A DNA stretch of 64,000 nt from Antedon mediterranea (taxonomy: Eukaryota > Animalia > Echinodermata), in assembly GCF_964355755.1 (NCBI RefSeq), contig NC_092672.1, forward strand, positions 2,356,001 to 2,420,000, written 5' to 3'. The notes under the pieces are model-generated. The model saw nothing but the letters and a program-made list of their open reading frames with translations, was not told where the DNA came from and made no database searches. The position numbers and the translations under genes are program-made. Shown here one piece after another: positions 1 through 54,939 of this stretch. The stretch's first letter is position 1. The number at the start of each line of letters is the position of its first letter.

Positions 1-118
1 AAAGCGATAAAACGCATAGTGATACCGGACCGACAGACAGACCGACAGACAGACAGACAGACAGACCGACCAACCGACCGACATAGTGAACTATAGAGTC
101 GCTTCCACGCGACTAAAA
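1..118. mobile_element. 3' end of a Helentron-associated (HINE/DINE-1-like) element
   Basis: (GACA/GACC)n microsatellite followed by the hairpin AGTCGC-TTCCAC-GCGACT and an A-run, the usual HINE end layout. Confidence 0.55.
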
Positions 119-239
119 ATGGGTTAAATTTCTTATTAAAACTTGTATAAGTTAAATAAAATTAGATTGAAATATACAAAATGATATGCTTATGACAACA
201 ACATGGTGATTAACACAAAATGTTGACCATCAGGAGGTC

Positions 240-28310: not shown

Positions 28311-30384
28311 GGGTAGTAACAAAGTGCGAGGCAGCGAGGCACGCGAGGCAGGGAAGGCATGCGAGGCAAGTCAGAAATTTATGCGAGGCATCGTTTTACC
28401 ATCATCAAAAAATGCGAGGCATCATTTTATCATTTCTCAAAATTGCAAGGCAGGAAATCACCGAAATTGAAGTAGCCTAGGCCTAGGCCCGCTAGGCTAG
28501 TTTCCTTTTGCACCTGCCTTGTAATTTAACCAAGGCTTTATCCTGAATACCACAGCTTAGAATTAGTAGGCCTACTTTAATGAAGAAAAATCACATAAAA
28601 GTAACAATAAATCCATTAAATTGGTGATTTTACAGACGTTGTTTTTCTCGCATTTCGCACACTCAATGTTCAATATTTTGGTTTCTATGGAACGCCAAAA
28701 GAGCAAAATTAATTAGAGGGCTAAAAACTCTGTGGAATCCATTTATATTTAACGCATTATTTGGTGAAAATCAAGTACAATTTCAATAGATTTTGTCACT
28801 GTCAGTAAGGAAAAATGATACTGTTGATAATGTACACGGTTTCGTTAACCTTTTAAAGAATAAAATAGAAAAATTCATCATAATATCCTTAGTAGGATGT
28901 CCTAGGTCTAGACTAGGTAGTGATGTTGATTTAGGATCGATTATTATTCTTTGAAAACAGAACAGTATCAGCAGTAACATATTACAACATTTTTATTGAC
29001 AAATTAACAAATATTTTGAAATAAAACGTGTTTTTCACCAATAAATGCATGAGAAATTGACGCATTCCACTGAGTTTTAGTCCTCTATTATCGTTGCTCT
29101 TTTGGCGCTCCATAGAAACAAAAATATTGAACATTGAATAAGTGAAATTCGCGAACAGTGTGCGAGAAACACGCCTGTAAAATCATTAATTTAAGGATTT
29201 ATTTGTTACTTTTTATGTGATTCTTTCATTAAAGTACTCATGAGGTATACTTCTAAGGTGTGGTATTCACACGATAAAGTTAGTTATCAAATTTGGAGTA
29301 AAAATATAAGCGAAGGAAACTAGCGCCAGGTTTATTAGTACGTACGTACATGGACAACAATAAATAAAAATCGTTCGTAATATACCTAGCTTACTAAAAC
29401 AGGAATAGTGTATCATTATTAAATATTACACCAATTATTATTTTATCAAAATTGATTAAACTATTTTCTACATAGGCCTTTATCTAGGTTGGGGCTAAGC
29501 ATATTAGCTAAAGTTTAATTTTAGGCCTAGTATTACAATTGTCGGACGTAAGTCTTTTTTCACACGCGCTCCAGAATTCTGTCGCAATTTTTTTCTTTGC
29601 GGCATGTTATTGGATCGGCATATCAGTTACCTTTTATTCACCGCCAGTTATTGAACTTGTCCTGGCAATCGCTGTTCACCTTATTTGCGAGAGAGGTACA
29701 CGTGTTGTTCCTAGAGAATGGAATGTCAAAAATGTCTTTGGCACGCCGCTCAGAGAGAAGTCTGTGCGTTGCTGCTGAAACCACGTGCTATAGGAGGGGA
29801 ATGCACCACAATCCTCTGAGCTGAGGGCTGAATCATTCCGCTACCTGCTAAATAGTAAAGAGGGATTTTCCATCTCTCGGGTCTACCGGATCTAGGCGCA
29901 GGGGTGTGACAAAATATTATTTTCACTCTGCTATGTTCGAGAGACATGTGAGTGAACACGCTCGAAATGCCAACAAACATTGCAGTCATTTGATGAGTGT
30001 GTCGCTATAACAATTATTGTTTATCGAAAGTTGAAGACTGTCGTTCAGATTTTTGAACCGTAGTTTGGGCACTTTTGTAAAAGTAAAATTTGACACGATA
30101 TGACTTGAATGAAAAAACAATCGTTATATAAAAATAAACAACATGATGAGTGTATACACGAATCTATTTAGATACGCTTGTATCGATTGATTATTAGGCC
30201 TATAATATAGCATAATAGCACGTTAAGATATGCCTCGCACCTTTTTGAAATTGTAAACTATATGCCTCGCATGCCTCGCACTTTTGGAAATGATAAAATG
30301 ATGCCTCGCACAAATATTATTTGGCATGCCGCGCATGCCTCGCTTGCCTCGCGTGCCTCGCTGCCTCGCACTTTGTCAACACTC
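28311..30384. mobile_element. Non-autonomous Mutator-like element with (GCGAGGCA)n subterminal repeats
   Basis: TIR ...ACAAAGTGCGAGGCAGCGAGGCACGCGAGGCA; TSD CACACAGC at 28303-28310 and 30385-30392. Confidence 0.8.
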
Positions 30385-31261
30385 CACACAGCTAGCCTAC
30401 ACTAACTGCACTGGGAGGGCCCAGCCTACTACTAGGCCTAGCTAGTAATAGGCCTTCCATAGGCCTAGGCTAGGCATAGTAGTAGGCTAGGGTGCTGGTC
30501 AACCCGTACCCAAACCAACCCGTACCCATGCCAACTCGTACCCAACTTGGCTAACCCGTACCCAAATAATTGGTCAACTCGTACCCACTTTGGCTAACCC
30601 GTACCCAAACCAACTCGTACCCATGCCAACTCGTACCTAAATATTTGGCTTACTCGTACCCAAGTATTTGGCTTACTCGTACCCATTATTTGGCTTACTC
30701 GTACCCATTTTTGGCTTACTCGTACCCACTATTTGGACTACTCGTACCCAATTTGAATAATTAGGCCTACTTGTAATGATTTGATCGGCGCAAAACTAGT
30801 GGTATGCTTTTGACGTATGAATATTTTTATATTTAAATTGTTTTTTTTATTTTACAGGTCTCGGTGAAATGTGTGCTAATAAAAATGACCATTGAATTGA
30901 TTGTAAACTTCGTTTAATTAGGCATATATTTATTAACATTTATTTAAATGTAGTATTATAGTTTTATAAACGTATGTTTGATGTGTCTTTTTATTTATTT
31001 ACGTAAGAACATTAATTAATAAAAAAATATTTTTACTGTTGTATAGTATTACAATTCAATTAAAAAGCCCAGGTAAAGTACCAACAACGTATCATTTTTA
31101 TACTTACCAATTTTTATTCTTATCACCTAATTATCTTCCCTGATTACATTCGATAATGGAGGTATACCTCCATGATTCGATCAAGTAATTATTGTTTCTA
31201 TTGTATTGGTATATTTAAAATTGATTGAATTAACAACGCCCTATTTTAATCAAAAAGCCCA

Positions 31262-31960
31262 CAGGGCTATGGGGTCGAATTACTCGTAGATTTCGTGTTA
31301 CGTGTTTTTGCTGACCGGGATTAACCTTTTATTATAAAAAAAAATGACGTATGATCGTTTTCCATATTTTATTTATTAATAATTCAGTGAAATGATCATG
31401 TACACGTACTGTAAAGTCTGCAGGGCTATGGGCGTAGATTTCGTGTTTTTGCTGACCGGGATTAACCTTTTATTATAAAAAAACACGCATTTATAGGGCG
31501 TTAAAGAGATGACTCATTAATGACGTATATGATCGTTTTCCATATATTTTATTTATTAATAATTCAGTGAAATGATCATATACACGTACTGTAAGGCCTG
31601 CAGGGCTATGGGGCGTAGATTTCGTGTTACGTGTTTTTGCTGACCGGGATTAACCTTTTATTACAAAAAAACACGCATTTATAGGGCGTCAAAGAGACGA
31701 CTCAGTAATGGCGTATGATCGTTTTCCATATATTTTATTTATTAATAATTCAGTGAAATGATCATATACACGTACTGTAAGGCCTGCAGGGCTATGGGGC
31801 GTGTGTTACGTGTTTTTGCTGACCGGGATTAACCTTTTATTACAAAAAAACACGCATTTATAGGGAGTCAAAGAGACGACTCAGTAATGACGTATGATCG
31901 TTTTCCATATATTTTATTTATTAATAATTCAGTGAAATGATCATATACACGTACTTTAAG
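31262..31960 (+). repeat. About 180-bp tandem repeat, ~4 copies
   Basis: cagggctatggg...gctgaccgggattaaccttttatta...aattcagtgaaatgatca at 31262, 31421, 31601 and 31787. Confidence 0.9.
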
Positions 31961-33614
31961 GCAATTAAACATTTTTGGCAGATTTTCTTCTATAACAGCT
32001 ACAGTGTGTAAAAAAAATAGACAACGCAATGTGGCGTACGATCGTTTTCTATTTTTTTTTCTTAAATAATTCAGTAAAATTATCTGTTTGTTTACAGCAA
32101 TTAAACATTTTTGGTAGATGTTTCCTCAATAACAGCTACGTGTTTTTGCTGACGAGGGATTCCCTTTTAAAAAAATACGCATTCTATAATATTCTACAAA
32201 TAAATGACCCACACTCGTTTTTCCATGGCAACGGATGTCGTCTTATTTACTAAAATAATATAAACGTTCTGAAGGCCTACCTACACGTGTCTGTGTACAT
32301 ACGTATCTGTCAGCGATAAGATGATTTTTTTTTAGTTTTATTTAGTAGTATTTTATTTCGGTTTTTAGTCATAATAATACAGTAATAATCATTATAAAAT
32401 GAAAACGTAATAACAGCAAATGTCGTCGTTTGTAATTAAATGTTAAATTATTGGAGGTTACCTTTTATTATTATTCTCACATCCATCATGTCCTAGGGAA
32501 TTTGTTTTAAAAACGGCAATAATCTACTTAGATTCATTATTCTAAAATGGTCCTTAGCAGCAAAAATGAGGCTGGTATCCACTTAAATAGTTTCGTGATT
32601 TTAAAATACGAGTGACTACTTAAAAATGTATTAAATATTTTCGAAATGTTAAAACAAAACTTGCAAAACAAAACAACAAAAACCATCTTTAAAACGACTT
32701 TCAAAAAGCACATTACTTCATTATCTGTAAAATAAAATGAAAAGTGTGTACAGGCTATTCGTAGTAAATAATAGATCAATAACTATTCATAAATGAAAAA
32801 AAATAGAATGCAGCACAGCCGACCACTGACATATCTTCCATGTAAAACAGCGCCCTCAAGTATTAATTTAACTACGACCCAAATACGATGAAATAGAGCT
32901 GTGCTTTTTTCGTACGAGTCTGTACATAAATTATACTTAGGTAAATAGTTTTTGCCATTATAATATCGAACATATGATCTAAAAATGTAATAAAACTGGG
33001 TTTAACTGTAATAGGCCTAGGGCCTATATAAATAGGCCTACGCCGTGGTTAGGATTCCGGCACCGGAACTCAACTGCCCACCGTTAGGGAATCCGACACG
33101 CTATTGCGCATGCTCAGAGCTCTGGGAAGTGAATAAGGCCAAAAAAAAAAAATAGTTTGTTTGCTGTCATCCGCCGCCCCTAATTTCGCCAAAAATTTGG
33201 GGCGGAAATAGAAAAAGTTTTTTTTTACGTTGAGGGCACTTTTGAAAAAAAAGTTTTTTTTAATGATTTTTTTTGGCCGAAAAGGTGTAAAAATCGAGTG
33301 TGCGAGAATGAAACAATAAAAATAATAACGTAGCGTATATTTCGGTGTATAATCGCACTTTTGACACGCAAATTTAACCTCTAAATTAAGGGTGCGTCTT
33401 ATACACCGAACATAAATGCCTCAACACACAGATATCGCCACCTCGTTGGCTAGGCCTGGGCTTTTTAAAGGTAAGGCCTAGGCCTATTAGTATACTAAGT
33501 CTAAAGAGTAGGCCTAGCCTAGCTACAGTGTACTAGCGTAACAGCAAACTGCTAGTTTTCAAGGCATTTTAGCGTGATTTTGTACTAAATATGATGAAAA
33601 GATTTGTTCATTAT

Positions 33615-33735
33615 TGTAGTGTATTGACCACATACATCATACTGTAAATAGTGTTGCCGCCCTCTGTTGTTCATTAAAGCAATCTCTCTCTATAAAATGG
33701 ATACCGAGCCTGAGTCATGTGTATGATACATCACA
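33615..33735 (+). repeat. 5' LTR (121 bp)
   Basis: Identical to 44853-44973. Confidence 0.95.
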
Positions 33736-35683
33736 ATTGGCGACGAGAATATAACGGAAAGCGCGTCAATAAGAAGATTAATCTGTGAGTAAGAATATTC
33801 AATAGTTAATATTCTACAATCTGCTAAGATGAGTACTATAATTGGTAGACTCGATCCGTATGACGGCGAGGCAGAGGACTGGGCCTCCTATGTGGAAAGG
33901 TTAGAGGCATATTTCATGGCAAACGGCGTGGATGACGACAAGCGTGTACCTACGTTACTCAGCTTGATAGGGCCTAAGACTTACGGTCTTCTGAAGAACT
34001 TAGTAGCACCTGATTTACCATCAACCAAAACATTTCCGGAACTTGTGGATTCGTTGGAAAGGCATCTGAGTCCTAAACCTCTAGTTATAGCTGAAAGATT
34101 CAGGTTTCACAAACGTGAGCAGCATGAAGGTGAAACAATCCAGGCCTATTTAGCGGATTTACGACGCCTCACCAAACACTGTGAATTTGGAGCACAGCTA
34201 AATGACGCCCTGCGGGATCGTCTTGTTTGCGGAATTAGGTCAGGCAGTATACAAAAAAGACTGTTGGCTGAGGCAAAGCTTACATTAGCGAAAGCGCTAC
34301 AAATGGCAGTTGCTATGGAAACTGCAACGAAGGATGCTTCGCTACTACAACAACAGTTTAAAGAAGAACCACAGAGTACTGTGAACAAGATAAACGTGAA
34401 ACACTATAATAAGCAGCAATTATGTTATCGCTGCAACAAGGGTGGTCATAAGGCAAACGACTGCCGGTACAAAGAAGTTGAGTGCCATAACTGTAAAAAG
34501 AAGGGACATATCAAGGCTGCATGCCGGAGTAAATCAAAACAAACACCACACCAAACTAAGAAGGGTAAGCGAGTGAATGTTGTTGATGAAGAAGAAGACA
34601 ACCTTCTAGCTATGGTGTATGTTAATAATGTAGACGTTGGGAAATCAGTGAAGATAAAACCAACGATAGATAATATCCCATTGGACATGATAGTGGATAC
34701 TGGCAGTGCACTCTCGTTGATTTCGATAGAAGATTTTGAGAAATATTTTAGGAATACAGACTTGTTGCCGACCAAAGTTCAACTTAGAACTTATACTGGA
34801 GAAGAAGTAAAGACAAAAGGGTATTTGAAGGCCAAAGTAGAATACAACGGACAGAAACACGATGGAAAACTATATGTAGTAGAAAGAGGTGGACCCCCGT
34901 TGTTTGGTCGTCAGTGGTTGACACATATCAAGTTAGACTGGGCCAGCATCTTCACAGTGAAGGCTGACCACAACAAAGCTGATGTACCAGCAATACTGAA
35001 TAAATTTCCAAAACTCTTTAACAAAATTGGAAAGGTGAATGGGGTAAAAGGTAAACTTACCTTACAGGATGGAGCACAACCAGTTTTTATTAAGGCAAGG
35101 AATGTACCATATGCACTTCGACCTGCAGTTGAAGCCGAATTAAGGAACCTCGAGAGTCAGGGAATCACCACCCCGATTCAAACTAGTGATTGGGCAACCC
35201 CAATAGTGCCTGTACCAAAAAGTAATGGAGATGTCAGGTTGTGTGGAGACTACAAAGTTACAGTAAATCCAAAGTTAAAAGTGGACTGCTACCCTCTTCC
35301 AAGAATCGAGGATGTTTTCGCAACCTTAGCGGGTGGACAGAAGTTCACAAAACTAGATTTGAAACAAGCATATTTACATTTAGAGATGGAAGAAGAATCC
35401 AGAAACATGCTGACCATAAATACACACAAAGGGCTATTCCAGTTTAATCGACTAGCGTATGGCATTGCATCTGCTCCTGCCATATGGCAGCGGACCATGG
35501 AACAAATCCTGAATGGTATTCCGGGAGTCCAGTGTCTACTTGACGACATGATTATTACTGGCACTACTCATGAAGAACATTTAAGGAATCTAGAAAAAGT
35601 ATTAAAGGTTCTCAGTGATAGAGGACTGTGCCTCAATGACAAGAAGTGTGAATTCTTCAAAGAAAAGGTCGTTTTTTGTGGTC

Positions 35684-35713
35684 CACGGCAGTTTCCAGCG
35701 AGACAAAAAGTGG
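35684..35713 (+). repeat. Left end: RSS-like CACGGCA-12 bp-ACAAAAAGT
   Basis: Read directly: CACGGCA GTTTCCAGCGAG ACAAAAAGT GG. Confidence 0.85.
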
Positions 35714-36914
35714 TGAGCCCTCTATAGTTTCGATGCTCGCTTTTTCTTATTTTATGTTATAGAGGGCGCTAGTTTAAATACCCGGAAGACTATTTTTAAT
35801 ACCCTGGTAAAAGAGAGGGATTAACCTGCCAATAGACAGTGTTATAATTGAAAATTTAATGAATATTCATGTTATATTCGAAGAAGAAGGCGTGTAATTG
35901 ATATTCGAAGCCAGCGGTCACTCCGTTTCTCAAGACTTCACGAGATATGAGTATTGAAATCTTACGTCTATTTTGCGACAAAAAACAGTAAAAAATAGCA
36001 GTTTAATTACAGGGTAATGGTGAGGTTATATATTTTTTTTGCAATTTACATAAACATCGGCGCCTAGTCGATGTGAAAATTCAAAAACTTGATAAACAAT
36101 ATTTAAAAAATCTCGCTGACGTCTAATCCAGTTTAATAATTATATACACAGAAAGTCGGGGCCCATTTGCCTGTTTTGCACACGTGGGTGTGCTGCTAAA
36201 GGCCTAGGCCTAACAAAGGTTTGTCACCTAGTACTAGGTTTAAGCCACGAAAAATAAATACTGTATAGGCCTAGGCCTAGAATAATATACTCTTAGTAGG
36301 CCTAGCCCAAGTATATGTCGTTAAGAGGGGAAATCAGCAGGGCCAGGCTTAGTAACAGCTCTATCTAGCTAGGCTAGGCCTAATTTTTTAATATGGTACC
36401 ATCAAGACATAGGTAGGCCTAGGAGGATAGGTATACTTACTAACTAGCTTTCATGAGGGCCTAAGTTATTCTACAGTAGAAAATGTGAAAATATCATAGT
36501 CTATCTTCCTATGGCTTGAATATTACTAAACTATGGCAGCAACAGCATTGCATTTGTAGAATAAAAAATAAAATTTTGATTTTAATTTTGACAGTATAGT
36601 CCTAATAATAATATAATATTTCATCATGTACTTCAATCGCTAGTCCACCATTTTTTTAAATAATGATGATAAATATTTATAATTCAAAAATTGTACTACA
36701 GGTTCCAAAAATACCACCAACACAAACAAGTACGACTACTTTATTGATGCAAGTGTGGTTCATAAGAGAATCCATAATAAAGAAGAAGATGGCACTCCGT
36801 CAGATTTATCAGTAAGCCTATATTTTCTTTTATTTCGTATTCATTGTCGTGTACTTTATTCTTCTTTTTCTGAAAAATATAAACAGGTTTATTTAATTTT
36901 TGGTGAGCAGGGAG

Positions 36915-39900
36915 CTAAAAAGCACAAATAGTGTAATCAATAAAGTGTAAATTGTTACCAATTTTTCTTCTTTTGGGTTCAACTATTTCTTCTATTATGC
37001 ATGGCTGAGTGGTAATTGCATGTGACCGCATCATGGATGTTAACTGTCCAAGTCTGTCATGCATCCCAGCAACTGTTCTTTTCCTTTTATTAAGCGCGGC
37101 GTGAATAGACTCCCCACCTTGCTCGCTAACCAGTCCCAGACCAAATCTCCAAGCCTTTAATTGGGGAATGACATGTTCCTCGAGCATATGTAATTTTGGA
37201 GATATACTTTTGTTGGTTTTTCGATATTCCTCCATAAAGTCTTTTATGGCTTCATCTGAATTTTTTTTGTAGAAGAGAAAAGAAACAGTTGCAGTGTATT
37301 GTAGGAAAAAAAAACAATGGCATGTCTAAGGAATACCTTGAAAGGTAAGCATAATTACATTACCATTTCCTTGAATATCAACATCTGTGACAGGTTTTGA
37401 ATGATTCAAGTTGTTGTGAACCCTAGAAAATTTTGAAAGGAGTGCATCGTACTTGGTGACCAATTCTTTTACTCTTTTGTCAATTAGCTGAATTTTTCCG
37501 ATAGGAATCTCAGCTTCTTGAATTTTCATTTCATGTAGTGGAGCATTCACTAGTTCATTCCTAACATGGTCCTATTAAAAACAAATATACATTTTAAAAA
37601 CTACAATTTTAATAATTAACAGTTGAAACAATATCAATTAAAAGAATAGTTAATTTACCTGGCAACATTTATGAACATGGTTACCAATAAATGATTTACC
37701 ATGATAGGCTTGCCGTTGGATGCGATTTTTTTGTAGCACACGCTCCAGTGATGTGACAATTGGACCCGTTCCAAATGGAAGCCCATTTTCCATGCATTTT
37801 GTCTGTAAAATAAAATATAATACAAGTTTTGGCTTTAGAGTATGTGTCTGGCAAGACGCATCTATGTCATTTATTGTTTGAGTAACTTACCAGTGACTCA
37901 ATCTCTTCTCTCAATTTGACTATCTTTCCCACATTGGTAATGATGCTACCATCAACACTTCCTTTAAGATAGATTAATGGCATTGCATCCTCCATCTCAG
38001 TCAACTTTAATTTCTTTTCTTCAATCTTTTCTTTGATATCAATTTGTGTTTGGATCTGATGTTGAATTATTTTATCAAACTTTGATTCAGAAGTGTCATC
38101 AAGTTCTCCATTTTTCCTTAGGGAATATATGAGGCAATCTATGCTGTGCGCCTCCGTCTCAAGCATATCAAAGAGCTTCTTGAATATGCCCAATGACAAG
38201 TGCAGGCTAGGAACAGACACCTAAAAGATATAAATTTTAATACCAACAGTGCCATATAATGAAGTAAGTACATTTGTTTCTCTAATATAAAGATAATTAA
38301 AAACAAAACTGATGTACTTACATGATCTACCTCAATTGATACTAAGGGATTATTAACAACGCTCATGGAAACATCCTTAGATCGGCTTTCAATTCCGCCA
38401 TCTTCCATAAACATTCTATAGTTGGCTCTGATTGAAGCCAATGATCGCTGTTTGGCGGGTGGTGCCTTTAATTGCATTTCTGCTTTTGGTTTTTCACAAA
38501 AGAGACAGCAGTATCGAGCTAAAAGTATTCAAATTTTTTCACAATGTTTAAAAATGCTAAAATATGCAGTAATACAGTATAAATAAAATTGGCTTAGAAA
38601 GATTTTGTATAAATTAAATGATGATAAAATAATTTAATAGTTTACCATTTGGTCCATTTAATCCATAGAGTTTTGTTAGATACTCATAGTCCCCAAAACA
38701 GAAAACTCTCAGTGTGTAATTGCTGAAAGAAATTATACATATATTTTTATTTTATTACTTCTATACGCATCCACATAATTGTTAAGTTGATATACTAGTT
38801 GTATTCTTACCGCCATTTTTCCCCGTTCAAAGCAACAACTTGGTGGGCCACTTCCGGAAGAGTCCGGTTAATATTAAACATCATGTCAGGGGCATCAAAT
38901 ATTAGTACGACGATGATGTTGTTAATTGAATTTGGTTTGGCGAGGCTACATATCTGTACCTCAAATTTGGTACTTCCACCTCCCTTATCCCCGCCAAACT
39001 TTATCCAAACCTCGTTATTATTGGGAGATAGGTTGTTCAGTCTGTAAAAAAATTTAGTAAATATTAATTCAGTTTTTAATTAATTTCTTTTAACTTTTAT
39101 TTCCATAGCAAATCCATAGGAACAAAAGTAAAGTCCTAAAAAGTAAGTTCTACACTTTGTAAGCACATATTAAAATTTAACTTCAGCGTACCTTGAGTGT
39201 TCATCAAGATATGAAAATACAACTTTTTTAATGTTTTTCAGTTTGACAGTAGGCGTTGATCTTAATTCTATCCCGTCTGGGGACGTCTCAGACCTAAAAC
39301 ATAGCATTTCCATTGTGGATTCAAAATAATCCCCAATGAGATCATTTTGCCGCTGCCGCATCCTTTTCTCTGATGGTATTGTCCCCTTCTCCACATATCT
39401 AGTACATAAAAAGGATTAATAATGTAGTCTCGCTTTATTACTAGACATACTTGACTGTGTCTAAAATGCCTGTATTCATGCATGGTTTTATTTAATCACA
39501 TAATTGTTTGTTTACCTTCTTAGCTTTCGTAGCTGGTTCCATGCCAGATGGCAGTCTGACACCATTGCCAGAGCCTTATCTGTATCTATAGACGAAGTTG
39601 ATGCTATGTTGGCTGCTTTTAAGACCGCTTGACTCGTATGTTTGGCTGAGTACACTTTTTGATGGAAATCACCAGCCTCACTATTGCCAACTGATTTTAT
39701 GATGCTGCTGATGCTATTTGCTCGTCTTGAAACAGTTCGAGAACTGGCCTTATCACTTGAGACTTTGGTGTTTGGTATGATAGCAATCTTTGCTGGCTGT
39801 AGATAAGAATTGTATTTGTATGTTTTATGCTAACAATTCTGTTATAATAATATTAATCTACTTTTTATAACATGCAATATGATAATTACAGAATTTGTTT

Positions 39901-40740
39901 TAAAGCACTCACCCGACCATTTGTTGCAATCAGCATTTCCTTACTTTTCTTTAGTTGATTGTAAACAACTTTTTCTGCAAACGTTTGTATTGTTTGGGAG
40001 ACATGACTATCTTCTAGTGATTTCTCTAACACTGATACAGCTTTTGAAACATTATGATAAACCACTTCTTTAGTTGTCTGGTGTTCACAAATATGTCTCT
40101 GATGTTGAGAGTATTTTATGAACTTATTGCACGAGCATTGTAATTCTAGTGATTTTAGAGACTCTATTACAATTTGGGAGGCGGGTTTAAATTCCAGCAT
40201 GTGCATTGGCTTTGCGCACACAAGACATGAACATACGTTAACATGGAGGGTACTAAACAAATTATACATACAACTAGAACAATAGTGATGTGAACAGTTT
40301 GACTCAAGACTGTTGAAAGACAAAATCGAGTTGCATATTTGGCAAATGAAAGGTTCAGAATTGATTTTGTCATTGACTGTAAATTTTGATGGAATAACGT
40401 CACATTCTGTTTCAGAAAATAATGTGTTGAGTTTTACTTGTTTTAGTCTCTTACCTGGTTTTGACTGTTCTGATAATAAATAACATGTGAAACATGATTG
40501 TTGTGTGTGTTGTCTCCAGATGTACCTTTGAGTTGTGCTAACCTTGTTATAGCTTGAAAATTGACAGTTCTTGCAAATGAATGGTGGATGTACATCTTTG
40601 TTTTCATGGGTTAAATCGATATTTAAAAATGTCAGGACGCTATCTTTTACTTTAGTTAGGTCAAATTTTCGCTGATTTCGTGTTAACTTGACACCACATA
40701 CACGACATAAATTACTCAATGCATATGTATGGTACTCCAT
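36915..40740 (-). CDS. RAG1-like (Chapaev-type) DDE transposase, ~947 aa; exons 40740-39913, 39796-39516, 39398-39192, 39041-38811, 38722-38646, 38518-38322, 38220-37891, 37802-37659, 37571-37364, 37255-36915
   Basis: Nine GT-AG introns with compatible phases and no internal stop. N-terminal H..LCRVCG..HP..C..C..W..H..C..C domain, C3HC4 RING, C2H2-like finger, NGR|P motif; core WIKFGGDKGGG, FGDYEYL..GL..YCCLFC, SLHLSLG, FIGNH, KLHMLEEHV..GLVSEQGGES, colinear with RAG1 core motifs. A short alternative last exon at 36869-36856 is possible. Confidence 0.9.
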
Positions 40741-41362
40741 TTCACAAGACAATAAATAACAGTAACATACCACATACAGTCAATGCAAAACCAATACACA
40801 ATTCTTTAAAAAATATATAATTAACTTTGCCCTAGGCCTATTTTTACCTATAAAATCACTGGAATTTTGAACAGAAATAAGTCAATTTCAAATTTAGCTC
40901 AAATCAATTTGAAAGTAGACGTCAGCCTGAATTTTGAGCTAAATAAAGAATAAAGTCTCCGCTTTCACTTGGAATTAACGGTGTTGCTCGAAAAAATTGC
41001 AGAGATTTGCTATCAGACGATCAAAAGCTTGAACTTACCGCGACGATAAACTTTCGCCGTGAGGGCGCTATTTATGTATATTTTCAGCTTTTGAAACTAT
41101 CGCAAACATCGTTAAAATTTCGCTTTTTTAATAATATTTTTTAATCCTAGACAATTTTCCCTAATACAAAATACAATAATAAAGCAAACACTGTAAGATT
41201 CGAGGAAAACTTTATTAATTTGTCATTGTAAGACTGTATTTACTTCGTATGATACACTCTCTGTTTATAGCTAGCTAATGTAAACATTTCGCTCGATGTT
41301 GGTGGGCTATAAATAGCTGCTCAAGGCTCGCGCCAGGCGTATCAATCAAAAGCGCGTTGTAA

Positions 41363-41401
41363 ACACTTTGTGTCTCGGATATCGCGTTTGAAACTGCCGT
41401 G
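41363..41401 (-). repeat. Right end: RSS-like CACGGCA-21 bp-ACACAAAGT
   Basis: Reverse complement reads CACGGCA GTTTCAAACGCGATATCCGAG ACACAAAGT GT. Confidence 0.85.
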
Positions 41402-42071
41402 GGTCATGTGATAGATAAAAATGGATTACATAAAACTGAGGACAAGATTGAAGCTGTTAGAAATGCTCCCAAACCTACAACCGTAAGTGAACTCAGATCA
41501 TTCTTGGGATTGATCAACTATTACCATCGATTCCTGAAAGACTTAGCTACAGAAATTCATCCGTTGAATAAACTGTTAGAGAAAAAGGAAAAATGGACAT
41601 GGACAAAGGATTGCGAGATGGCGTTTAATAAAGCCAAACAACTTGTGACTGCAAATAATGTGTTAACACATTATGACCCAACATTGCCTGTTAAGCTAGC
41701 TACAGATGCTTCTCCATATTGTCACACAACATTGATGGAGTCGAACGACCAATCGCCTATGCATCGAGGACCTTGAGCGCAGCGGAGAAGAATTACTCTC
41801 ACATTGATAAGGAAGCTCTTGGCATAGTATGGGGAGTAAAGAAATTTACCAGTTACTTGATTGGTCGAAAGTTCACCTTAGTTACAGACAATAAACCACT
41901 TACGTACATCTTCAATACATCGAGGGCTATTCCTGCCACAGCAGCTGCAAGATTAACTCGCCAGGCAATTTACTTGTCAGGATTCAATTACGAGATTGAA
42001 TACAAGAAAGGTGAAAACCACAAAAATGTAGATGGACTTTCATGACTACCATTAGCAAATACTGAAGCTAA

Positions 42072-43322
42072 GGCCAAATAAAAAAATATACTTGTTAAGC
42101 GTCACACCCTCATAAATTTTCAGGGGCGGGGGGACGGTTTTTTTTTTTTTTTTACTTTTTATAGAGGTATATTTTTGCGCGGTGGACGTTTTGCCCCACT
42201 TTTTTAGGACGAAACGTCAAACTTTTAAAATGCGAAACAGAACAAAATTGACTATGTATGAAATATTATTGCTTATGACAAAATTGAGTTTTGTATTGTT
42301 TATATCCAGACGTAATTAAAACATTAAATTTAATTGCCACCAAGCGAAATTGTAGGCCCTAGGCTAACTAATCCGTCCAAGGTGCTACCCCAACCTCACT
42401 CATCGGCCATCTGCCGTCTCTCGCTCGACTCATCTATCCAGGAAATTCCCTATCGCGAGAAGCATGATTTGGTGGTCTCAATAATACTAAATAGTGGGCT
42501 GATTTATAGTTTGAAAACAGCTTACGGCATTTCTTAAGTGAATTTTTATTCAACGTATTCATTCTTCTTTGATGAATCCTTTGCCAATTGCTGTGTAAAT
42601 CAGTATTTAAAGTTGTGATGCAAAAAGTGTATGCAATTATTCCAGGCAGGTAAACCAGGCATAAGGAAACCCATCGCCCAACAGGACCTCGTGGTGTGCC
42701 GATCTCGAGATCATCGTAAACAAAATTGGTAGAGTCCATTATGTATGGGGTGTTTCCTATTTACGAACCTATAAAAAAACGCGCTTCGACCACTGTGTAG
42801 GCAAAATATTTATTTCGTTAAATCCCTAAATTGATAATCGCGTATTCTGTAATCACGTGACTGATGATGTAATCCTCAGCGACGTACTAAATGCACATGA
42901 TTTAATGTGTTGGGGAAAAAGCTTGCTGTTTACCACATTACATGATTCACGGTGCTATTCGCGTTTCCTTTACGTAAATCGGCGGCGTGTAAATGAAACA
43001 ATTGTTTTCACCAATTTGCCGTTGTCGACATAGAGCGATCGGCGGCTAGCGTTGTCTAAGCTAAAAAGTATGTATTTTTTCAAAAATTACACTAGCCTAA
43101 CAAACATTTGCTAGTTTTGAAATTTTCAAATAGCAATTATGAAGAATCTACTAGCAAAATGCTAGTTTGCTAGCGTGAATTTCGAGCCCTACTCTGGAGC
43201 TGGGTCGGGCCGCTGAACTTTCCGTTGTATATCGGTAAAAAAAAAATAAAAATAAAAAGAGAGGCGGCTGGATAATCAGGAGCGGGCGGTGACGCTTAAC
43301 AAGTATGTTTTTTTATTTGGCC
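42072..43322. mobile_element. GGCC-terminal MITE with TAA TSD (Zator or PIF/Harbinger type) inserted in Gypsy pol
   Basis: 34-bp TIR GGCCAAATAAAAAAA..TACTTGTTAAGCGTCAC; TAA at 42069-42071 and 43323-43325; removal restores the pol frame. Confidence 0.9.
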
Positions 43323-44852
43323 TAATGCTGAGGATCCGGTTGAGGTGTTTCACACTATGCAGTTTCAACCACTTCCTGTAACAAGTGCCCAGGTCAAGAT
43401 TGAGACATTACACAACCCAACAATGTCAAAGGTGTATGATTACACAATGAAGGGTTGGCCTAAGAGCTGTGATCCGGAATTTGAACCATTCCATAGACGA
43501 CGTGATGAACTGTCAATTTTTGATGGATGTTTGCTATGGGGTACGCGAATCATTGTTCCACCAAAATTCAGAGCAAGAGTACTTGACGAGTTACATGAAG
43601 GACATTTGGGCATTGTAAAAATGAAGTCCTTGGCAAGGAGCTATGTTTGGTGGCCGAGAGTGGATGCTGACATAGAGAAATTAGCAAAAACCTGTAGTGG
43701 ATGCCAAAAGACACTGCATGAACCTCAGAAAGCACCCCTACATCCATGGCAGTGGCCGAGCAGTCCGTGGGAACGTATCCACATCGACTATGCGGGACCA
43801 ATAAACAACATAATGTATCTGGTAGTTGTGGATGCACAATCCAAGTGGCCTGAGGTATTGCCTACGACCACAGCGACATCAAGCAAATCAATAACTCTGT
43901 TGCGCGATTTATTTGCGAGGTATGGACTACCAAAGCAGTTGGTATCGGACAATGGTCCGCAATTTGTGTCAGAAGAATTTGAAATGTTTCTCAAGAATAA
44001 TGGTATTAGACACATCAAATCAGCACCATACCACCCAGCAACCAATGGGTTAGCAGAACGTTTTGTGCAATCATTTAAAGGAGCACTCAAATCGGCAAAA
44101 GAAGGAAACGACACAAAACAAAAACTTGCAAACTTTCTATTAGCATATAGAAATGGCCAACACAACACAACTGGAATATCTCCAGCAATGATGTTTATTG
44201 GAAGACAACTACGCACCAGACTAGATTGCATTATACCTGACTTACGTCAAAAAGTTGAAAATAACCAGGAAAGCCAGAGAAAACCAACTAGCGAAAAGAA
44301 GCTTAGAGAATTCAAAGAAGGAGACAAAGTGTGTGTTCGTGACTATAGATCAAAGAGTCAGAAGTGGATAGTCGGAATTATTCATAGGAAAACTGGAAAG
44401 TTGTCATATGAAGTCAAAGTTGGACCAGACATGATTTGGAAAAGACACATTGATCAAATCTTAAGCAGTGGCTTAACACTAGATCTAGAGACACCTCCAG
44501 ATATAGATCCTGTTGATTTAGAACCAGCTATCTCAGCAACACCAACACCACCACCGGAAATACAACAACCAGTTGAGATTCCACAACAACCACCACCAAG
44601 GAGATACCCACAGAGGAACAGGAAACCACCTAACAGACTTGATTTATAATGGACCTTTAGACATAACTCAATACAGTTAACAATAATCATAATGATAACA
44701 ATATAAATAATGAGACTACGGACACTTGAGATTGAAACACTTTATTATCAGAACAGTTTTAAAAAAATAAATAAATAAATCTTATAACGAGCAATATACC
44801 TTAAAGCTTGCTATTTAAAATGTTATTGCCATTGAATCTAAAGGGGAAGAAT

Positions 44853-44973
44853 TGTAGTGTATTGACCACATACATCATACTGTAAATAGTGTTGCCGCCC
44901 TCTGTTGTTCATTAAAGCAATCTCTCTCTATAAAATGGATACCGAGCCTGAGTCATGTGTATGATACATCACA
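44853..44973 (+). repeat. 3' LTR (121 bp)
   Basis: Identical to 33615-33735. Confidence 0.95.
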
Positions 44974-45301
44974 ATTATGGAGCTGTTTTAGGCGCTCCGA
45001 TAAAATTTCATTTGAAAACGTTTACGATTGCAATAGTATTATAGTTTTTATACGCACGACCGTCGTACCCCCAGCGCGAGCGAGCCCTTCTTGGCAACCA
45101 CATTGTGTACACAGTATTCGATTAGTATATTCTCCAGTTGATTATAGCATAGACCTAGCGTACACACTTCTAGGAAACATAGATACTAATCGAATACGAT
45201 TGTCCGTGAAAACGTGCGCCTCTCGATAAAAGGATCGAGCGAGGCTAGCCCACACACACGTGCGGTTATGCACTCGATGTTGCGGGTGCGAAACTCATTC
45301 A

Positions 45302-46138
45302 TAAAGAATATATATCACAAGAATGAGTAATCCGCGATTTTCCCTGTAACAGTAATATTGTCCATGTGGTAGGGCGCCGCCATAAGTGTGGATGTATCTG
45401 GGATGTATACAACTTTTTGTGACGGTTTCACTAATCAAAGGCTGGACCACCGGTAGTATTTTCATGATAAAAAATGTTATCAACTACATGCCAACATCAT
45501 GTTAAATACTTTTTGGATATTTAATTGTTCGTTTTATGCAATTTATTTAGTAAAAACTGCCGTATAAACAGTTTGCTTTATCAACCGGGCGCTACGATAG
45601 CGTGACCGGGCGTGTTGTTGTTTACGCGTTTTCACGTAGGATAGTTTAATAATATTCCTATATTTAACCTGTTTCTGGTAAAACAAATAAATGTTAATGA
45701 CATTTAAACTTTTGTCCTATTAATAACATGTATTTTATACTAATTTATATCATAAAAACAATACTTAATTTACCGGGCGTAGAGTAGTACAAGGCAATGG
45801 TAAAGAATAGGCCGTGCTGAGTAACGATTTGTTGATTTTTGGTGTTGCTGTGTTAGGCCTTTTTTGTGAACTAACTTAGCATGTTAGTAAATAATTGTCT
45901 GTAAAAGTGAATGTACACTAGTTTGTTAATAAATATGTATTATAAAATAGTTTACAATTGCAAAATATATTATCATAATTCTATTTAATGTGACATGTAT
46001 AATATCTATTAAATCAAGTCTTATTTAGTATGTATACATCCGCCCTTATGAGGGCGGGCATCACTCTCTTGAGCTCTCTGTTACAAATTTCTCATGCAAA
46101 AATTGCGGAATACTCATTCTTGTGATATATATTCTTTG
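45302..46138. mobile_element. MITE with ~38-bp TIR (possibly P-superfamily)
   Basis: AAAGAATATATATCACAAGAATGAGTA.TCCGC inverted at 46101-46138; no TSD resolved. Confidence 0.65.
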
Positions 46139-46802
46139 ATCGAACTTAAATTTGATATGACGATGCAGCATAACAGTGGTGGCGATTAGGGGATCGATGA
46201 TTCTAGCCTAAATGACGGTCATGACGTGCTATAAAATACTAGTGTATAGTGTTTCGGCCTCCTTAAAATTCAAGCCCATTGAAGACTTTGTTCATAACAA
46301 GTTAGAAAGAACTGACGGAATGGGGGACTTCCCTTCTTGTTGAGGCTGGGCGCGGCCGTCTTATACATCGACGATATACAAAATACCGATATTTTACTCT
46401 CAGTTAGGGGTCGGGTGCGTCTTATTATACACCGGTGCGACTTATACACCGAAATATATCGTACACTAACTTCTAAAAATTAAAATATTTAATTAGGCCT
46501 GCTAACAACGACCTACACAGTAGGCCCTAGTAGGCCTAGCCTAGGCTAGTTTAGACACGGGGCCTAACGCGCCCAAAACAGAATTAAAGTGTGAAACAAA
46601 TTATGAATAGATGTTTGAGCTTGTTGTTTTATTCAGTGTGTTTTGTTACTCTCAAATTCGCGAGCAATTAACAGAGAAATTAACATTAAAAAAAAAACAA
46701 AACAAAAAAAAAAAAACTTTTTTCCACCCGCCCCCCTCTACCAAAAAAAAAACTTGACAGCAAACAATTTTTTTTTTTAGGCCTAATTATAGCTTGTGCC
46801 AC

Positions 46803-47256
46803 CAAAGATTGTATAGCGCCGCTACGCGGCGCAAGATAGGTAACTGGGTGAGACCTTTGTAATCCATGGACGCCATTCCGGCGGACAAGTTTGAACCGGA
46901 ATAAAGTCGTTGTCAAGGCAATATCCACGATGTTTCGGTTAAAGAACGAAGTTGTCTAACCAAACATATCAATGTAAACACACAGAATTAATCGGAAAGT
47001 GTCCAGATCCCAAAGAAACTTTTATTTTACTTTGTTTACATAATTTCTTCCCTTTTCCATGAATCAATCATAAAGATGGTTAACCACAGATACTTCGAGG
47101 CGGACCGCAAAATTTAAATCATTTACATTTAAATCACAATAATAACCTGTCCGCCCGAATGGCGTCCACGGATTTACTGGGCGCGTAGTGTTATAAGATA
47201 GGAGCTTGGCAACAGTTACCTATCTTGCGCCGCGTAGCGGCGCTATATAATCTTTG
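46803..47256. mobile_element. P-superfamily-like MITE (CAAAG...CTTTG, 7-bp TSD)
   Basis: About 44-bp TIR CAAAGATT.TATAGCGCCGCTACGCGGCGCAAGATAGGTAACTG; GTGCCAC at 46796-46802 and 47257-47263. Confidence 0.8.
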
Positions 47257-48273
47257 GTGCCACACTGCACACCACACTACCACTGCTGAGAGTCGGAGTG
47301 TTAGGATTTACTGTAGCCTAGTTAGTCGTTGCACGAGCGAGAGAGCGATGGATTAAACTTGGCCTAGGCCATACATGAATTAATAATTAAAATACGAATA
47401 TGCCAGGTGCCACGCGTTAAAATAATTATTATGATATTAAATAATCGGTATATCTATCTACCGTAAGAATCGTAATGCTGTAACTAGCGTTGCGACCCCG
47501 ACTTCCCGAACAGTTTTTTCACATCCACGCGGTGGCTGCCGTCAATAAATTAACTTGTGATTGCATGTTATGTACAGTTATAATGCGTTATATGAAATCT
47601 TTTATTTTGTACTTGAAAAATCATAAAACTAGTCAACTCATGTAAATTTTATATAATTCATAATTAGGCCATATATGAAGTTTATATATGAATGAAGCAA
47701 CCACTTTTTAATTACAAAATAAATAGGCCCACTGGTCACGTCTAGCTGGTAGGCCTAGCCTAGTATTTACTATTAATTAGTGGATCCCGTTATTAGTAGG
47801 CATCTACGCTAGTTCGCCTTGGGCCGCGGAGCTATGAAATGATCCATCGCGCGCTGTTGATAAAGTATAGAGTCACCGATTACCGGCGCTCTGCTGGGCA
47901 TGCGCAATAGCGTGTCGGATTCCCTAACGGTTGGCAGTTGAGTTCCGGTGCTGGAATCCTAAACCACGGCGATATAAATACACTTTAATAGCATTAAACT
48001 TGGGTACTGGCCAGCCAATGATGGGTACGGGTGAGCCAAAATTTTTGGTACGAGTAAGCCAAAATTTGGGTACCAGTTGGTGGGTACGAGTTGGCATGGG
48101 TACGGGTTGACCTGTATTCGTAGTCTACACCCTAGCTAGTAGGCCTAGCTAACTACTAGCTAGAGGCCTAGCTAGGCCTAGGCCTAGGCTATATTTTAAT
48201 TTTAAGCCAGAAGAAGTGGATGCGGATTAACAAGCAACCCGATATGGCTTTGCTGGCAGACAAAAATACTTAC

Positions 48274-50780: not shown

Positions 50781-53700
50781 TTGTAATAATTTCTTTCTTT
50801 TTAAAATAAAATATAGATTTTGATGTGGACTTAGTGAACTTTTCAGAATGGTATGATAAAAACAACCTCGTCAGACAGCTGAAGGTTTTATACCACGATT
50901 TAATTTCAGTAGCAGACATAGACAAAGCCAACACAACGATAGATCTTCTGAATGCATTGAGGAAAACAGGACGTTTAAGCCCAGGCAATCTGGAGTTACT
51001 TTATGAAACGATAAAAGTAACCCAAACGTTTGGAGCTATCAAAGTTTTCCAACAATCTATCTTTGAAGTTCAAGAAATACAAATTATAAATTTCACCCCA
51101 TATCGACACTGGATTGCAGATTTTGGAAACGAACTACGAAAGGCTGCTGTTAAGAAAATTGATGCACTCTTCAACAATCCTTTAAAGAATTATGAAGACT
51201 CTTGGAGTATGATTATAGACTTGGAACAAAGACAAATACTTTGTGGAGAAAGAAAAGAAGAGTTTATTAACAAGCTTAACAAAATTGGACTGGCATCAAC
51301 GATGAAATGCCTGACACAAGGTATGTAACAGGAACGAATTAGCAAACAAATCATTAGTTGGAGAAGATGTGAAAACTCGCAGGGCATACTACAAATAATT
51401 ACGAGGAAAACCCAATCTAAAAAAATAATTACAACAATCAATCAATTGTTTGTTCGCCACTTATCATTGGCTGAATATGTAGCAAAACTTGTTTGGGCAT
51501 TATTTGAATTTGGACTCCAATAAAATGGTTTAGGTTTTTTTCATTTCAGTACAGAAATTTAAGTTTTCTTCTTCAGTGATAAGTGATAGATTTGAAATTG
51601 TGTTTGTCGCCCTCTATATGCAAGTGCGTTGCTAAAAGGGAATTTTGTGAAAACGTCCTTAATTGCAGTATAAACTTGACTACTTAAATGGGAATATTTC
51701 TACAATGAAAACTGTATTTCTTTATATTCGAATTGTAGTTTTATACTATGAAATTTATAATTATTCTGAACTATTATTCTAAACTATTTATCTATTCTTA
51801 TTTATCATTAAACAGTAAATGTACCTAACACAAGTAAAACAGAACAAGGAACGCAAAAAGAGTTTAAATCAGAAACAGGTTCGTTATTAAAATGTAATGT
51901 ATACATTTTCACCCAAAAGAAGTTTATTATGCGGTAGAATAATTGTTGTAAATTCAGTTTAATTCTAATTACAATAATTATAAGGTCGGTTTGATAACAA
52001 TATTATGACACTTATTATTTATTTCTTTATAAAACAGGAGATGTGTCGACTAATAGTAACAAAGAACAAGAAACGCAGAATAAGGTTGAGTCAGAAACAG
52101 GTTAGTTATTAGAATGTATCTATAATTTTTCTCCCATAAAGACGCTTTTAGGTAGAATATTTATCGTTGTAAATTCTGATTTATTAAGTAAAGTCATAAA
52201 CAAGCATGAAACATGTAATTATAATTAGGATTAGTATGATATATAATTAGAATATAGAATATATATTCCAACAATCATATTCCAACAATTTAATTGTCCT
52301 CAGTACAGTCCGGTATGAACAATTAATTCTTTTATTACAGCAAAATTAAGAAATTTGCAACTAAAAATGAAACTTACATTGTTATCGTTTTCTTGACTGA
52401 GTTAGTTTGATTTCTACATCTACAATATTTGATTTGTGATAAATTCATTTTTCGGTTTGCTGCCCTCTCTTGAGCATATTTCCATTTTTTTGTTTCTGAC
52501 GATAGAAAGAAAATGTGTTGGTCGCCCTCTATAAACCCAATAATTTACAAAAAAAATACGATACAAATATTTATACGACAGAGTTTGGTATAACTGATAA
52601 CAATCTTTAATAACTTTAGAATTTTATTTTTTACTTACTTAAATTTATATGTTAGAATATTATTATGTGTTATGATATGGATTCTGAAATAAAAGTGAAT
52701 TGAATTGAATTTAGGTAAATCATTTCAAATTGCTATAGCCTAATAACAAATTTCAATTTCATTTACCTATAATGACATTATCTAGGCCTGTAAAATAAAC
52801 AACCAAATCACTATAATTGTTAACAACTTAGGCCTTACTAAAATAAACTAAATATAAATAGATAAAATTAATATCAACAACAATAATAATATATATAATG
52901 CTTAATAGAATATGATTAATTATAAGATTCATTCTATTAAATAACTTTCTTTCTTTTTAGAAAAGATAGAAACATATCTGATTCAAATACAAAAGGACAA
53001 GTGCAGCCAGGCCAGTACATTTACACCTGCAATAATGAATGATAGATACAAAGTTGACATTTCACAGATGTTTACCGATATGGAATTACTAACGGAAAGT
53101 GAAAACAATAAAGAAACCAGCAAACCAACAACATTGGAAGAAGTGATTGATGTTATCAGTTCTAAACCTGGATGTAGAGCTCTCATAGAAGGGGAAGGGG
53201 GTATTGGAAAAACTACTATATTAAGACATTTATCATACACATGGGCTACTAATGGGCCTAATCAATATACTAATGGGCCTAATCAATCTAATAATGTCTT
53301 TAAAGGTAAAATTGTATTTCTTTTATATCTAAGAGATTTGGAAAAAGATGCCGATATCTTCGATTTAATTATAAAGCAACTGGACATGACAGATTTCAAT
53401 GTAAAGACAGATCTCCCAAACGATTCACGGTTGATTAGAAAATTTATAAAGAAACATGACACTAAAGTTGTGTTGCTACTAGACGGATTAGATGAATTAA
53501 GAGTTAATAATCAAATCGTTATTAGTCTTTTCAGAAAAGACAACTTTAAAAACAGTACTGTGATACTTACATCACGACCAGAAAACATAGATAAATGTAT
53601 AAAAGAGTGTAATGTACATGTAAGAGTTAAGGGATTTAATAAGAAGAGCATAGGTAAGTATATTGACAAACATTTTACGTATTTTGGAAGACCAGCATTG

Positions 53701-54939
53701 GGAGAATCCCTTAGAATCGAATTGGATATTGACACTTATCCTGTTGGGCGAAAACATCCTGAAGCATATTCAATGTGCAAAAACCCAATGCTACTTCTTA
53801 CAATCTGTATGCTATGGGAGGATAATCAAAATCTTCCTAGTGATAATACAGCTCTTTTCAAACAACTATTTCGTAGTATTTTAAATCAGTTTAACAAAAT
53901 AGAAAATTGTCAAAAGATTACTAAATTTGAAAACATTCCAGCGGAATATGTAAATTCTATGATTTTGTTAGGAAAATGTATGTATGCTAACTTGAAAGTA
54001 AATAAACTTTCAATAACTAAACAAGATTTGACTGATAAACATTCGAACACAAATATAGTTGACCTAGCCCTAAAACTTGGATTTGTTTACAAAGAAGCAC
54101 CACTTTCAAAATTTAATTGTGAAAGAATATTTATGCCTCTTCACAAATTGATCGTAGAATCATTGGTGGGATTTTACTTGTCTAAATTATTTGAAAGTGA
54201 AAATATAAAGGATGAATGCTCAGATGTAAGACAATTACTAATACCATTGGGTGATGATGAATTGGATGAAATAAAAAGCGAGTATTTCAATGTTGCCAGA
54301 CATTTTGCACTTGGTTTTCTTGATGCTGCAACTGTTGGTTATTATTTAAAGCAATATATCACAAAACATTTCCCATTAAGAATGAGAAGTAGAATTCGGA
54401 AGTTTTTTTTTGGCATTAAGATTACAGACAAGGAACGATTTATTGCGAACATTTTAGACATTAAACCTTTTGAACCTTATCGATATGTTGGTGTTAGTAT
54501 TCGGAATGTATCACGTGATGTATTTAATAACTTTCTTACAGAATTTTCTCACGAACAAGTTCAATTAGCATTAGAATATCTCGATATCTCTGGCAATAAC
54601 CTTCACAACATTGATGTTAATTCAATGTCTTCATTACTCATTATGTGTCCTAAGCTGAGGTTGCTTGACATGAGTCATTGCAATCTATCAGGTGACGTCA
54701 TCAATCACTTGGGTACAGAATGTTCTCTCAAACAAGTTCAATTGGCATTACGTTCTCTCCGTATCTCTGGTAATAACTTTCACAACATTGATGTTAATTC
54801 ATTGTCTTCATTACTCATTATGTGTCCTAAGCTGGATTGGCTTGACATGAGGCATTGCAGTCTATTAGGTGAAGTAATCAATTACTTGACCGAAGAGTGT
54901 TCAAACAGAGGCATCAATTTTTATACAGTTTATATATAA
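50673..54939 (+). CDS. NLR copy B: tandem DED-NACHT-LRR protein (~872 aa); exons 50673-50682, 50817-51320, 51816-51878, 52038-52100, 52961-54939
   Basis: Phase-1 GT-AG introns, open frame, same NACHT motifs as copy A, one fewer 59-aa LRR unit, two 63-bp linker exons. Confidence 0.9.

Follow-up and report, generated by a model that had tools for sequence, protein, structure and literature searches.

The stretch of Antedon mediterranea (Echinodermata) DNA analysed here (64,000 nucleotides, NC_092672.1, positions 2,356,001 to 2,420,000 of the forward strand; "the window") contains a complete DNA transposon that very probably belongs to the Chapaev family and carries a spliced transposase gene (Table 1). 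Both ends of the element read CACGGCAGTTTC, a perfect 12-bp inverted repeat of the CAC...GTG type, and a 4-bp target-site duplication lies on either side. The transposon is inserted in a Gypsy-type element, recognised through Pfam, and interrupts its reverse-transcriptase frame. The long terminal repeats (LTRs) of this host element are short (∼120 bp) and identical to each other, a weak clock at such length. An inverted 20-nt motif containing TGACGTC is found at 36106–36125 and 40916–40935, 420–470 bp inside each end, and GAGGGCGCTA is found close to both ends; these are possibly shared promoter or transposase-binding sites.

The mobility of the element was investigated using four read runs (X1–X4) from two samples, assembled against the region. 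An empty site was present in all four runs, with a joint between 35679 and 41402 that skips 5,722 nucleotides (5,718 + 4). Runs X1 and X4 each placed the element beside a different left flank, and read contigs broke off at its two ends; hence the family of this element sits at several places. Contigs from X2–X4 differ from the window at just 6–9 positions over the whole element. Out of 40 listed substitutions, 26 were tested (left out were 13 rows belonging to a single diverged minor contig and one position outside the element); nine were exonic, five being silent and four missense, and none produced a stop. The copy is intact and has likely moved recently.

The gene runs on the minus strand, where ten exons (40740–36915) joined across nine GT–AG introns give a 947-residue frame without stops. 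An earlier interpretation made from the letters alone (the sequence-only reading) had proposed this single frame, which stands with one amendment: a tenth intron (36958–36870) is spliced in X1, giving an 11-exon, 937-residue form as well. The introns are 87–150 nt long, with a GC content of 15–31% against 34–44% in the exons. X1 is likely an RNA run, a status that was guessed, none of the four runs being recorded as RNA. The RNA junctions to which the sequence-only reading had looked were found in part: CT..AC joints in X1 cover introns 3, 5, 6, 8 and 9 and the tenth intron, that is, 6 of 10, and introns 1, 2, 4 and 7 have no listed junction. The sequence would also allow an alternative acceptor at 36914, but no listed junction uses it. 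The RefSeq protein P0001 from Antedon mediterranea, found in a search with exon 10, equals residues 383–937 of the model letter for letter and isoform P0002 carries the C-terminus of the 947-residue form, the two together holding both C-termini; these models may derive from the present locus, and they do not constitute evidence independent of the genome sequence.

The N-terminal head begins with a Chapa/NZD zinc domain, whose ligands are H4, C12, C15, C56, C59, H78, C83 and C86. Its motifs (H-x-L-x3-CRxCG, HP-x2-F-CxxC and W-x2-H-CxxC) agree with a published alignment, as compared by eye. A 122-member family profile matched the RAG1 NZD structure 21wb (E 1.4e-8) and also aligned with RAG1 residues 100–491. 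Exon 1 alone matched only RAG1_imp_bd in Pfam (E 0.082), and a word-based homologue search with exon 1 gave no matches. A C3HC4 RING with all eight ligands follows at residues 133–175. Structure models were made for exon 1 and for the core, leaving out residues 277–382; the exon-1 model has a predicted local distance difference test score (pLDDT) of 83, and its RING and finger part matches RAG1 (1rmd), TRAF6 and LNX. The zinc domain, RING and zinc finger originally read from the sequence are thus borne out by their ligands, by the profile match to 21wb and by the model match to 1rmd.

Conservation was counted over 39 homologues of at least 830 residues. With a relaxed pattern, the RING was detected in 15 of these and was absent from 24, which suggests that the family often manages without it. 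For the RING E3 activity that the sequence-only reading put forward as possible, the fold and all eight ligands are in place. The RING of the window protein terminates in C-L-V-C-A and lacks the proline and the basic residue that are common in active RINGs. The GRP motif is indeed present at residue 275 and split by intron 1 after its R, as had been noted. Across the homologues it is better described as G-x-P, since G is kept in 33 and P in 25 of the sequences and R in only 6.

In a HMMER search, the core matched 2,012 cluster representatives (E ≤ 0.001), 159 of them with E ≤ 1e-30; the long relatives are mostly 28–37% identical. The triad proposed from the letters alone, in GGDKG (455), FGDYE (525) and EQGGES (879), and the ZnC2/ZnH2-like ligands in CLFC (546) and HMLEEH (857) are well conserved: D457, D527, C546, C549 and H614 are kept in 39/39 long homologues, H857 in 36, H862 in 35 and E879 and E883 in 34 each. 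In the 122-member profile, D527, C546/C549, H857/H862 and E883 align with mouse RAG1 D708, C727/C730, H937/H942 and E962, respectively. Of the two glutamates in EQGGES, the latter, E883, is the most likely catalytic residue. D457, which is invariant and lies on the first strand of the modelled core, is probably the first catalytic aspartate. In exon 4, the surroundings of this aspartate are matched by Pfam DUF1280 (PF06918; E 1e-13 to 1e-15), which suggests that this Pfam family belongs to the core of Chapaev-type transposases.

As modelled by AlphaFold2 (pLDDT 94, predicted template-modelling score 0.90), the transposase has an RNase H core with a ZnB insertion, and this model can be superposed on both RAG1 and Transib. 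Foldseek matched it to RAG1 (E 4e-13, template-modelling (TM) score 0.60), BbRAG1L (TM 0.60) and HzTransib (TM 0.48). Pairwise superposition, one of the checks named in the sequence-only reading, gave Z 22.6 for RAG1 (root-mean-square deviation (rmsd) 3.3, 405 aligned), Z 21.4 for BbRAG1L (rmsd 3.6, 417 aligned) and Z 20.2 for HzTransib (rmsd 3.7, 364 aligned), with Z 11.4 for the P element. Identity to RAG1, BbRAG1L and HzTransib in these structural alignments is 13–15%. The spacing from the second aspartate to the glutamate is 356 residues, against 253 in RAG1 and 206–214 in Transib, the wider gap being due to a predicted long helical hairpin. No match was obtained with phmmer between the core and RAG1 chains, nor to a RAG1 core family in the Pfam copy used, and PDB sequence searches with exon 10 or with only the core gave chance-level matches.

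No RAG2 partner was found beside the transposase. The non-coding flanks inside the element measure 1,231 and 661 bp, and their longest stop-free frame is 82 residues, with no Pfam match at E ≤ 0.01 among the nine short frames scanned, in agreement with the earlier statement that they hold no kelch-like frame. The longest antisense frame starting with ATG is 64–95 residues, against 366–535 for RAG2-like (RAG2L) proteins.

Zhang et al. (2014; PMC4079192) list as Chapaev hallmarks CAC/GTG termini, target duplications of 3–4 bp and the motifs C(2)C, LH and H(4)H, and Kojima (2025; PMC12730594) uses the same three motifs to group Chapaev, Transib and RAG1. All the hallmarks looked for were found here, namely CAC...GTG ends, a 4-bp duplication, a Chapa domain and a DDE core with C(2)C, LH (L613–H614) and H(4)H. 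The models in a 2026 preprint (10.64898/2026.01.24.700457) present Chapa domains as NZD-like, and the ligand pattern of the present domain fits type I as defined there. Kapitonov and Koonin (2015; PMC4411706) describe two subgroups of Chapaev in which Chapa, RING and C2H2 domains are joined to the core, the RING-bearing Chapaevs being Chapaev-1/2_BF, -1/2_NV and -4/6/7_HM; the window protein likewise has a RING and a C2H2-type finger after its Chapa domain. The traits of RAG1-like (RAG1L) elements, that is, core identity of about 30% or more, a tail-to-tail RAG2L gene and a 5-bp duplication, were not found in the window element.

Taken together, the element is very probably an autonomous, RING-bearing Chapaev transposon with an intact spliced transposase of RAG1/Transib-type predicted fold and no RAG2 partner. 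The sequence-only reading had favoured Chapaev over RAG1L, and this preference holds, as does its view of a possibly active single-protein RAG1 relative: the transposase is intact and probably active, with a predicted fold of the RAG1 type and no RAG2 partner. The surprise that it implied over the layout is not supported: the combination of Chapa, RING, C2H2 and core without RAG2 has already been published (PMC4411706, in the part available), and the core has 2,012 relatives. What is new is the intact young copy.

Related loci support the joining of head and core. The joined protein is matched in one piece by two metagenome loci, L001 (residues 1–936) and L009 (residues 2–933). A third, L020, is a complete relative of 6,166 bp (35–6200), 33% identical and intron-rich, with Chapa and RING domains. 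Its end, CACGGCTGTTTC, is identical to that of the window element at 11 of 12 positions, and eight of its nine introns, introns 1 and 2 included, have the same position and phase, though this match is not blind, since the L020 donors were set manually at homologous positions. The unmatched intron is intron 5, and exon 5 seems frameshifted. L020 is flanked by a 5-bp duplication (one site, one contig), which fits the lability of duplication length reported for the Transib and RAG1–Transib fold group (10.64898/2026.08.26.747230, in the part available). Furthermore, within the query's own family set, 38 of 152 proteins match residues 236–382 and 25 match the Chapa domain. Given these homologues, the one-piece matches and the introns shared with L020, a full-length protein with the head joined to the core is likely.

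An end-pair scan of 50 metagenome loci gave a convincing pair with a duplication in L020 only; L022 and L035 have the 3' end of L020 in common. A second Chapa–RING–core protein, P0007 (951 residues, core 33% identical), is annotated in Antedon mediterranea, so at least two families are present in this species. No relative was found in viral contigs.

Several points weigh against the assignment. The placement in Chapaev was made by hallmarks and domain layout, and the 5-bp duplication of L020 means that duplication length is no clean family marker. The profile stretches over D708 and E962 are weak when taken alone (6.4 and 1.7 bits), and no alignment pairs D457 with RAG1 D600. Moreover, four introns are without a listed RNA junction, with homologues as the support for introns 1 and 2, and the RefSeq models begin at M383, without exons 1 and 2.

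Table 1. Features of the transposon and its transposase gene (positions in the window).
Feature	Position	Strand	Evidence
Complete Chapaev-type DNA transposon (very probable family), 5,718 bp	35684..41401	-	Ends, flanks, empty-site joint, contigs stopping at both ends
Target-site duplication GGTC, 4 bp, left	35680..35683	.	Flank comparison; empty-site joint
Target-site duplication GGTC, 4 bp, right	41402..41405	.	Flank comparison; empty-site joint
Terminal inverted repeat, 3' end of gene, 12 bp perfect, then subterminal shared motif	35684..35695	+	
Terminal inverted repeat, 5' end of gene	41390..41401	-	
Exon 1, residues 1–276: Chapa/NZD zinc domain, C3HC4 RING, zinc finger, start of G-x-P motif	39913..40740	-	
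Exon 2: putative NBD/DDBD-like region, from family profile against RAG1	39516..39796	-	Intron positions common with L020
Exon 3: RefSeq models begin here at M383	39192..39398	-	Intron 3 junction in X1
Exon 4: probable first catalytic Asp D457 (GGDKG), Pfam DUF1280	38811..39041	-	
Exon 5: second catalytic Asp D527, aligned to RAG1 D708	38646..38722	-	
Exon 6: C546/C549 (ZnC2), aligned to RAG1 C727/C730	38322..38518	-	Introns 5, 6 junctions
Exon 7: LH motif (H614), predicted long helical hairpin insertion	37891..38220	-	
Exon 8	37659..37802	-	Intron 8 junction
Exon 9	37364..37571	-	Introns 8, 9 junctions
Exon 10: H857/H862 (ZnH2), most likely catalytic E883; 947-residue isoform continues to stop at 36915	36959..37255	-	
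Exon 11, coding part, 937-residue isoform	36856..36869	-	Junction 36869–36959 in X1
Spliced antisense RNA, probably non-coding, five introns	35684..41401	+	GT..AG joints, X1 only

A second, antisense transcript was apparent in X1, with introns at 36020–36701, 36812–37272, 37345–38121, 38264–39108 and 39143–39523; the corresponding joints are absent from X2–X4. Two of its exons lie wholly within sense introns 9 and 3, and others overlap sense exons 7, 2 and 1. All five donors read GTRAG, of which the plus strand has 11 sites, and the acceptors are pyrimidine-rich. Contig depth was 24–101 at the antisense joints and 5–13 at the sense joints, depth being a poor gauge of expression. Judged by its frames, the RNA is probably non-coding. 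An antisense protein was considered and is unlikely, as a 95-residue ATG frame was reached by 3% of 500 shuffles, and the frame itself drops to 64 residues by a 1-nt deletion seen in all four runs. Caution is also due with the RNA itself, which comes from a single run of guessed RNA status with joint sides of 26–36 nt. No case of antisense RNA in Chapaev was present among the literature matches listed, which is weak evidence of absence.

The chances are about even that this RNA is not built into the element and arises instead by read-through from a host promoter or a Piwi-interacting RNA (piRNA) cluster beside one copy, with chance splice sites in AT-rich sequence. The X1 contigs on the antisense exons have variants of their own (11 differences in 1.9 kb), the unspliced left-end contig runs on into foreign flank, and read-through is a listed route to double-stranded transposon RNA, as are internal promoters, in the available part of a paper on antisense control of DNA transposons (PMC3878927). 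Against read-through stand the use of GTRAG by all five donors though just 11 such sites exist on the strand, the housing of two complete antisense exons in sense introns, and the inverted 20-nt motif common to both element ends. A bolder and rather doubtful proposal is that RING-bearing Chapaevs carry a second, inward-facing unit at the 3' end, in the place that RAG2L occupies in RAG transposons, and that its multi-exon antisense RNA, with exons in the transposase introns, restrains the element. If this were true, the intact copy would serve as a living model for a pre-RAG2 transposase that has the full N-terminus of RAG1, and the built-in convergent unit would be a slot that a RAG2-like gene could later occupy. 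A built-in antisense RNA would add a self-limiting mechanism for the Chapaev family.

For the transposase, it is improbable that only the 555/565-residue core is expressed, as annotated, with exon 1 as a separate or silent relic and the copy moving poorly or in trans. Such a reading would account for the start of both RefSeq isoforms at M383 and for the lack of listed junctions at introns 1 and 2, where the X1 contig over exon 1 is unspliced. That same contig, however, also bears the last antisense joint, exons 1 and 2 are open with canonical splice sites, L020 has its introns 1 and 2 in the same place and phase, and of the family proteins some match residues 236–382 and some the Chapa domain.

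It is very unlikely that the protein is a true RAG1L (TransibVDJ-type) transposase whose RAG2L was lost or never gained, and which would then be a missing link with the vertebrate RING. The domain order is that of RAG1, the top structural matches are RAG1 chains, the best PDB sequence match of exon 1 is the RAG1 RING region (E 6e-4), RAG1 clusters occur among the ESM Atlas neighbours and one relative, L020, has a 5-bp duplication. However, structural identity to RAG1 and BbRAG1L is 14–15%, against more than 30% over ∼600 residues reported for TransibSU in the available part of PMC4411706, and the core gave neither a phmmer match to RAG1 chains nor a RAG1 core Pfam match. The 4-bp duplication, ends that are not CACAGTG-like, the lack of RAG2L and the longer spacing from the second aspartate to the glutamate argue in the same direction. 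Finally, a domesticated host gene that has lost mobility is scarcely credible and is largely refuted by the several insertion sites: the gene is intact, intron-rich, transcribed and RefSeq-annotated, but its ends and duplication are intact inside a young retrotransposon, the reads show an empty site and other flanks, and L020 is equally intron-rich yet has transposon ends.

Dimeric end binding, DDE metal chemistry and flank hairpins are features of RAG and Transib enzymes. By analogy, the single Chapaev transposase would mobilise the element by cut and paste with no RAG2 partner, a dimer binding both ends through the part of the protein that follows the G-x-P motif, and D457, D527 and E883 would coordinate the metals required for nicking and strand transfer. 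Hairpin intermediates would probably form on the flanks, as in RAG/Transib-type chemistry, and a 4-nt stagger would yield the target duplication. The Chapa–RING–finger head is likely to be regulatory (through dimerisation, ubiquitin-linked turnover or chromatin contact) and dispensable for catalysis, and the spliced antisense RNA likely brakes the transposase via double-stranded or small RNA. No Chapaev assay or structure was present among the literature matches listed, which is weak evidence of absence.

The surroundings of the element are rich in repeats. The host Gypsy-type LTR retrotransposon (33615–44976) has an apparent 5-bp flank duplication, and its pol region is broken twice, by the Chapaev element and a further insertion; a ∼1.25-kb element at 42071–43323 in the same Gypsy has 35-nt inverted ends (97% complementary) and no long frame. 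Inverted-repeat pairs occur at 33049–33117/47894–47962 (69 nt), 46795–47264 (52 nt) and 45303–46137 (39 nt), and the 69-nt pair encloses the whole Gypsy, an arrangement that suggests nested insertions. Tandem arrays with units of ∼22 and ∼180 bp lie at 30262–32200. Repeated pieces of NACHT-LRR (NLR-type) genes are found at 11728–15477, 50810–54939 and 62848–63450, with NACHT and LRR confirmed by Pfam for 13312–15474, and the Chapaev element thus looks to be located in an NLR gene cluster.

A RING-bearing copy that is intact, has defined ends and has likely moved recently provides a direct reagent for studying the role of the NZD and RING in a transposase before V(D)J recombination. It also lets one ask how an enzyme with the RAG fold operates in the absence of RAG2 and how it sets a stagger of 4 or 5 bp.

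Compared with known systems, the element shares with RAG1 and RAG1L (ProtoRAG, TransibSU) the domain order, the predicted core fold (Z 21–23), the equivalents of D708, C727/C730, H937/H942 and E962, and a G-x-P that opens an NBD-like region. Transib (HzTransib) is likewise a single-protein DDE transposase of the same predicted fold, with CAC ends and no RAG2. In contrast, Transib, as far as the available literature excerpts describe it, is without Chapa/NZD and RING, its duplications are typically 5 bp, and identity is 13%. Chapaev3 has CAC ends, a Chapa-type domain and CMC motifs in common with the element and differs in its 3-bp TWA duplications, its length of ∼1.8–1.9 kb (examples) and the lack of a RING. 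The N-RAG-TP of Aplysia, in the available part of PMC8355894, is also a mobile element with a RAG1-like N-terminus, but there the N-terminal-like sequence stands alone, whereas here a full core is fused to it; Aplysia Chapaevs are given without a RING in the part of supplement 5 of PMC4411706 available. The closest likeness is to the RING-bearing Chapaev subgroups, which have the Chapa domain, RING, C2H2-type finger and DDE core in one protein, CAC...GTG ends and a 4-bp duplication, and from which the present copy is set apart by being intact and young, with 10 introns and a spliced antisense RNA.

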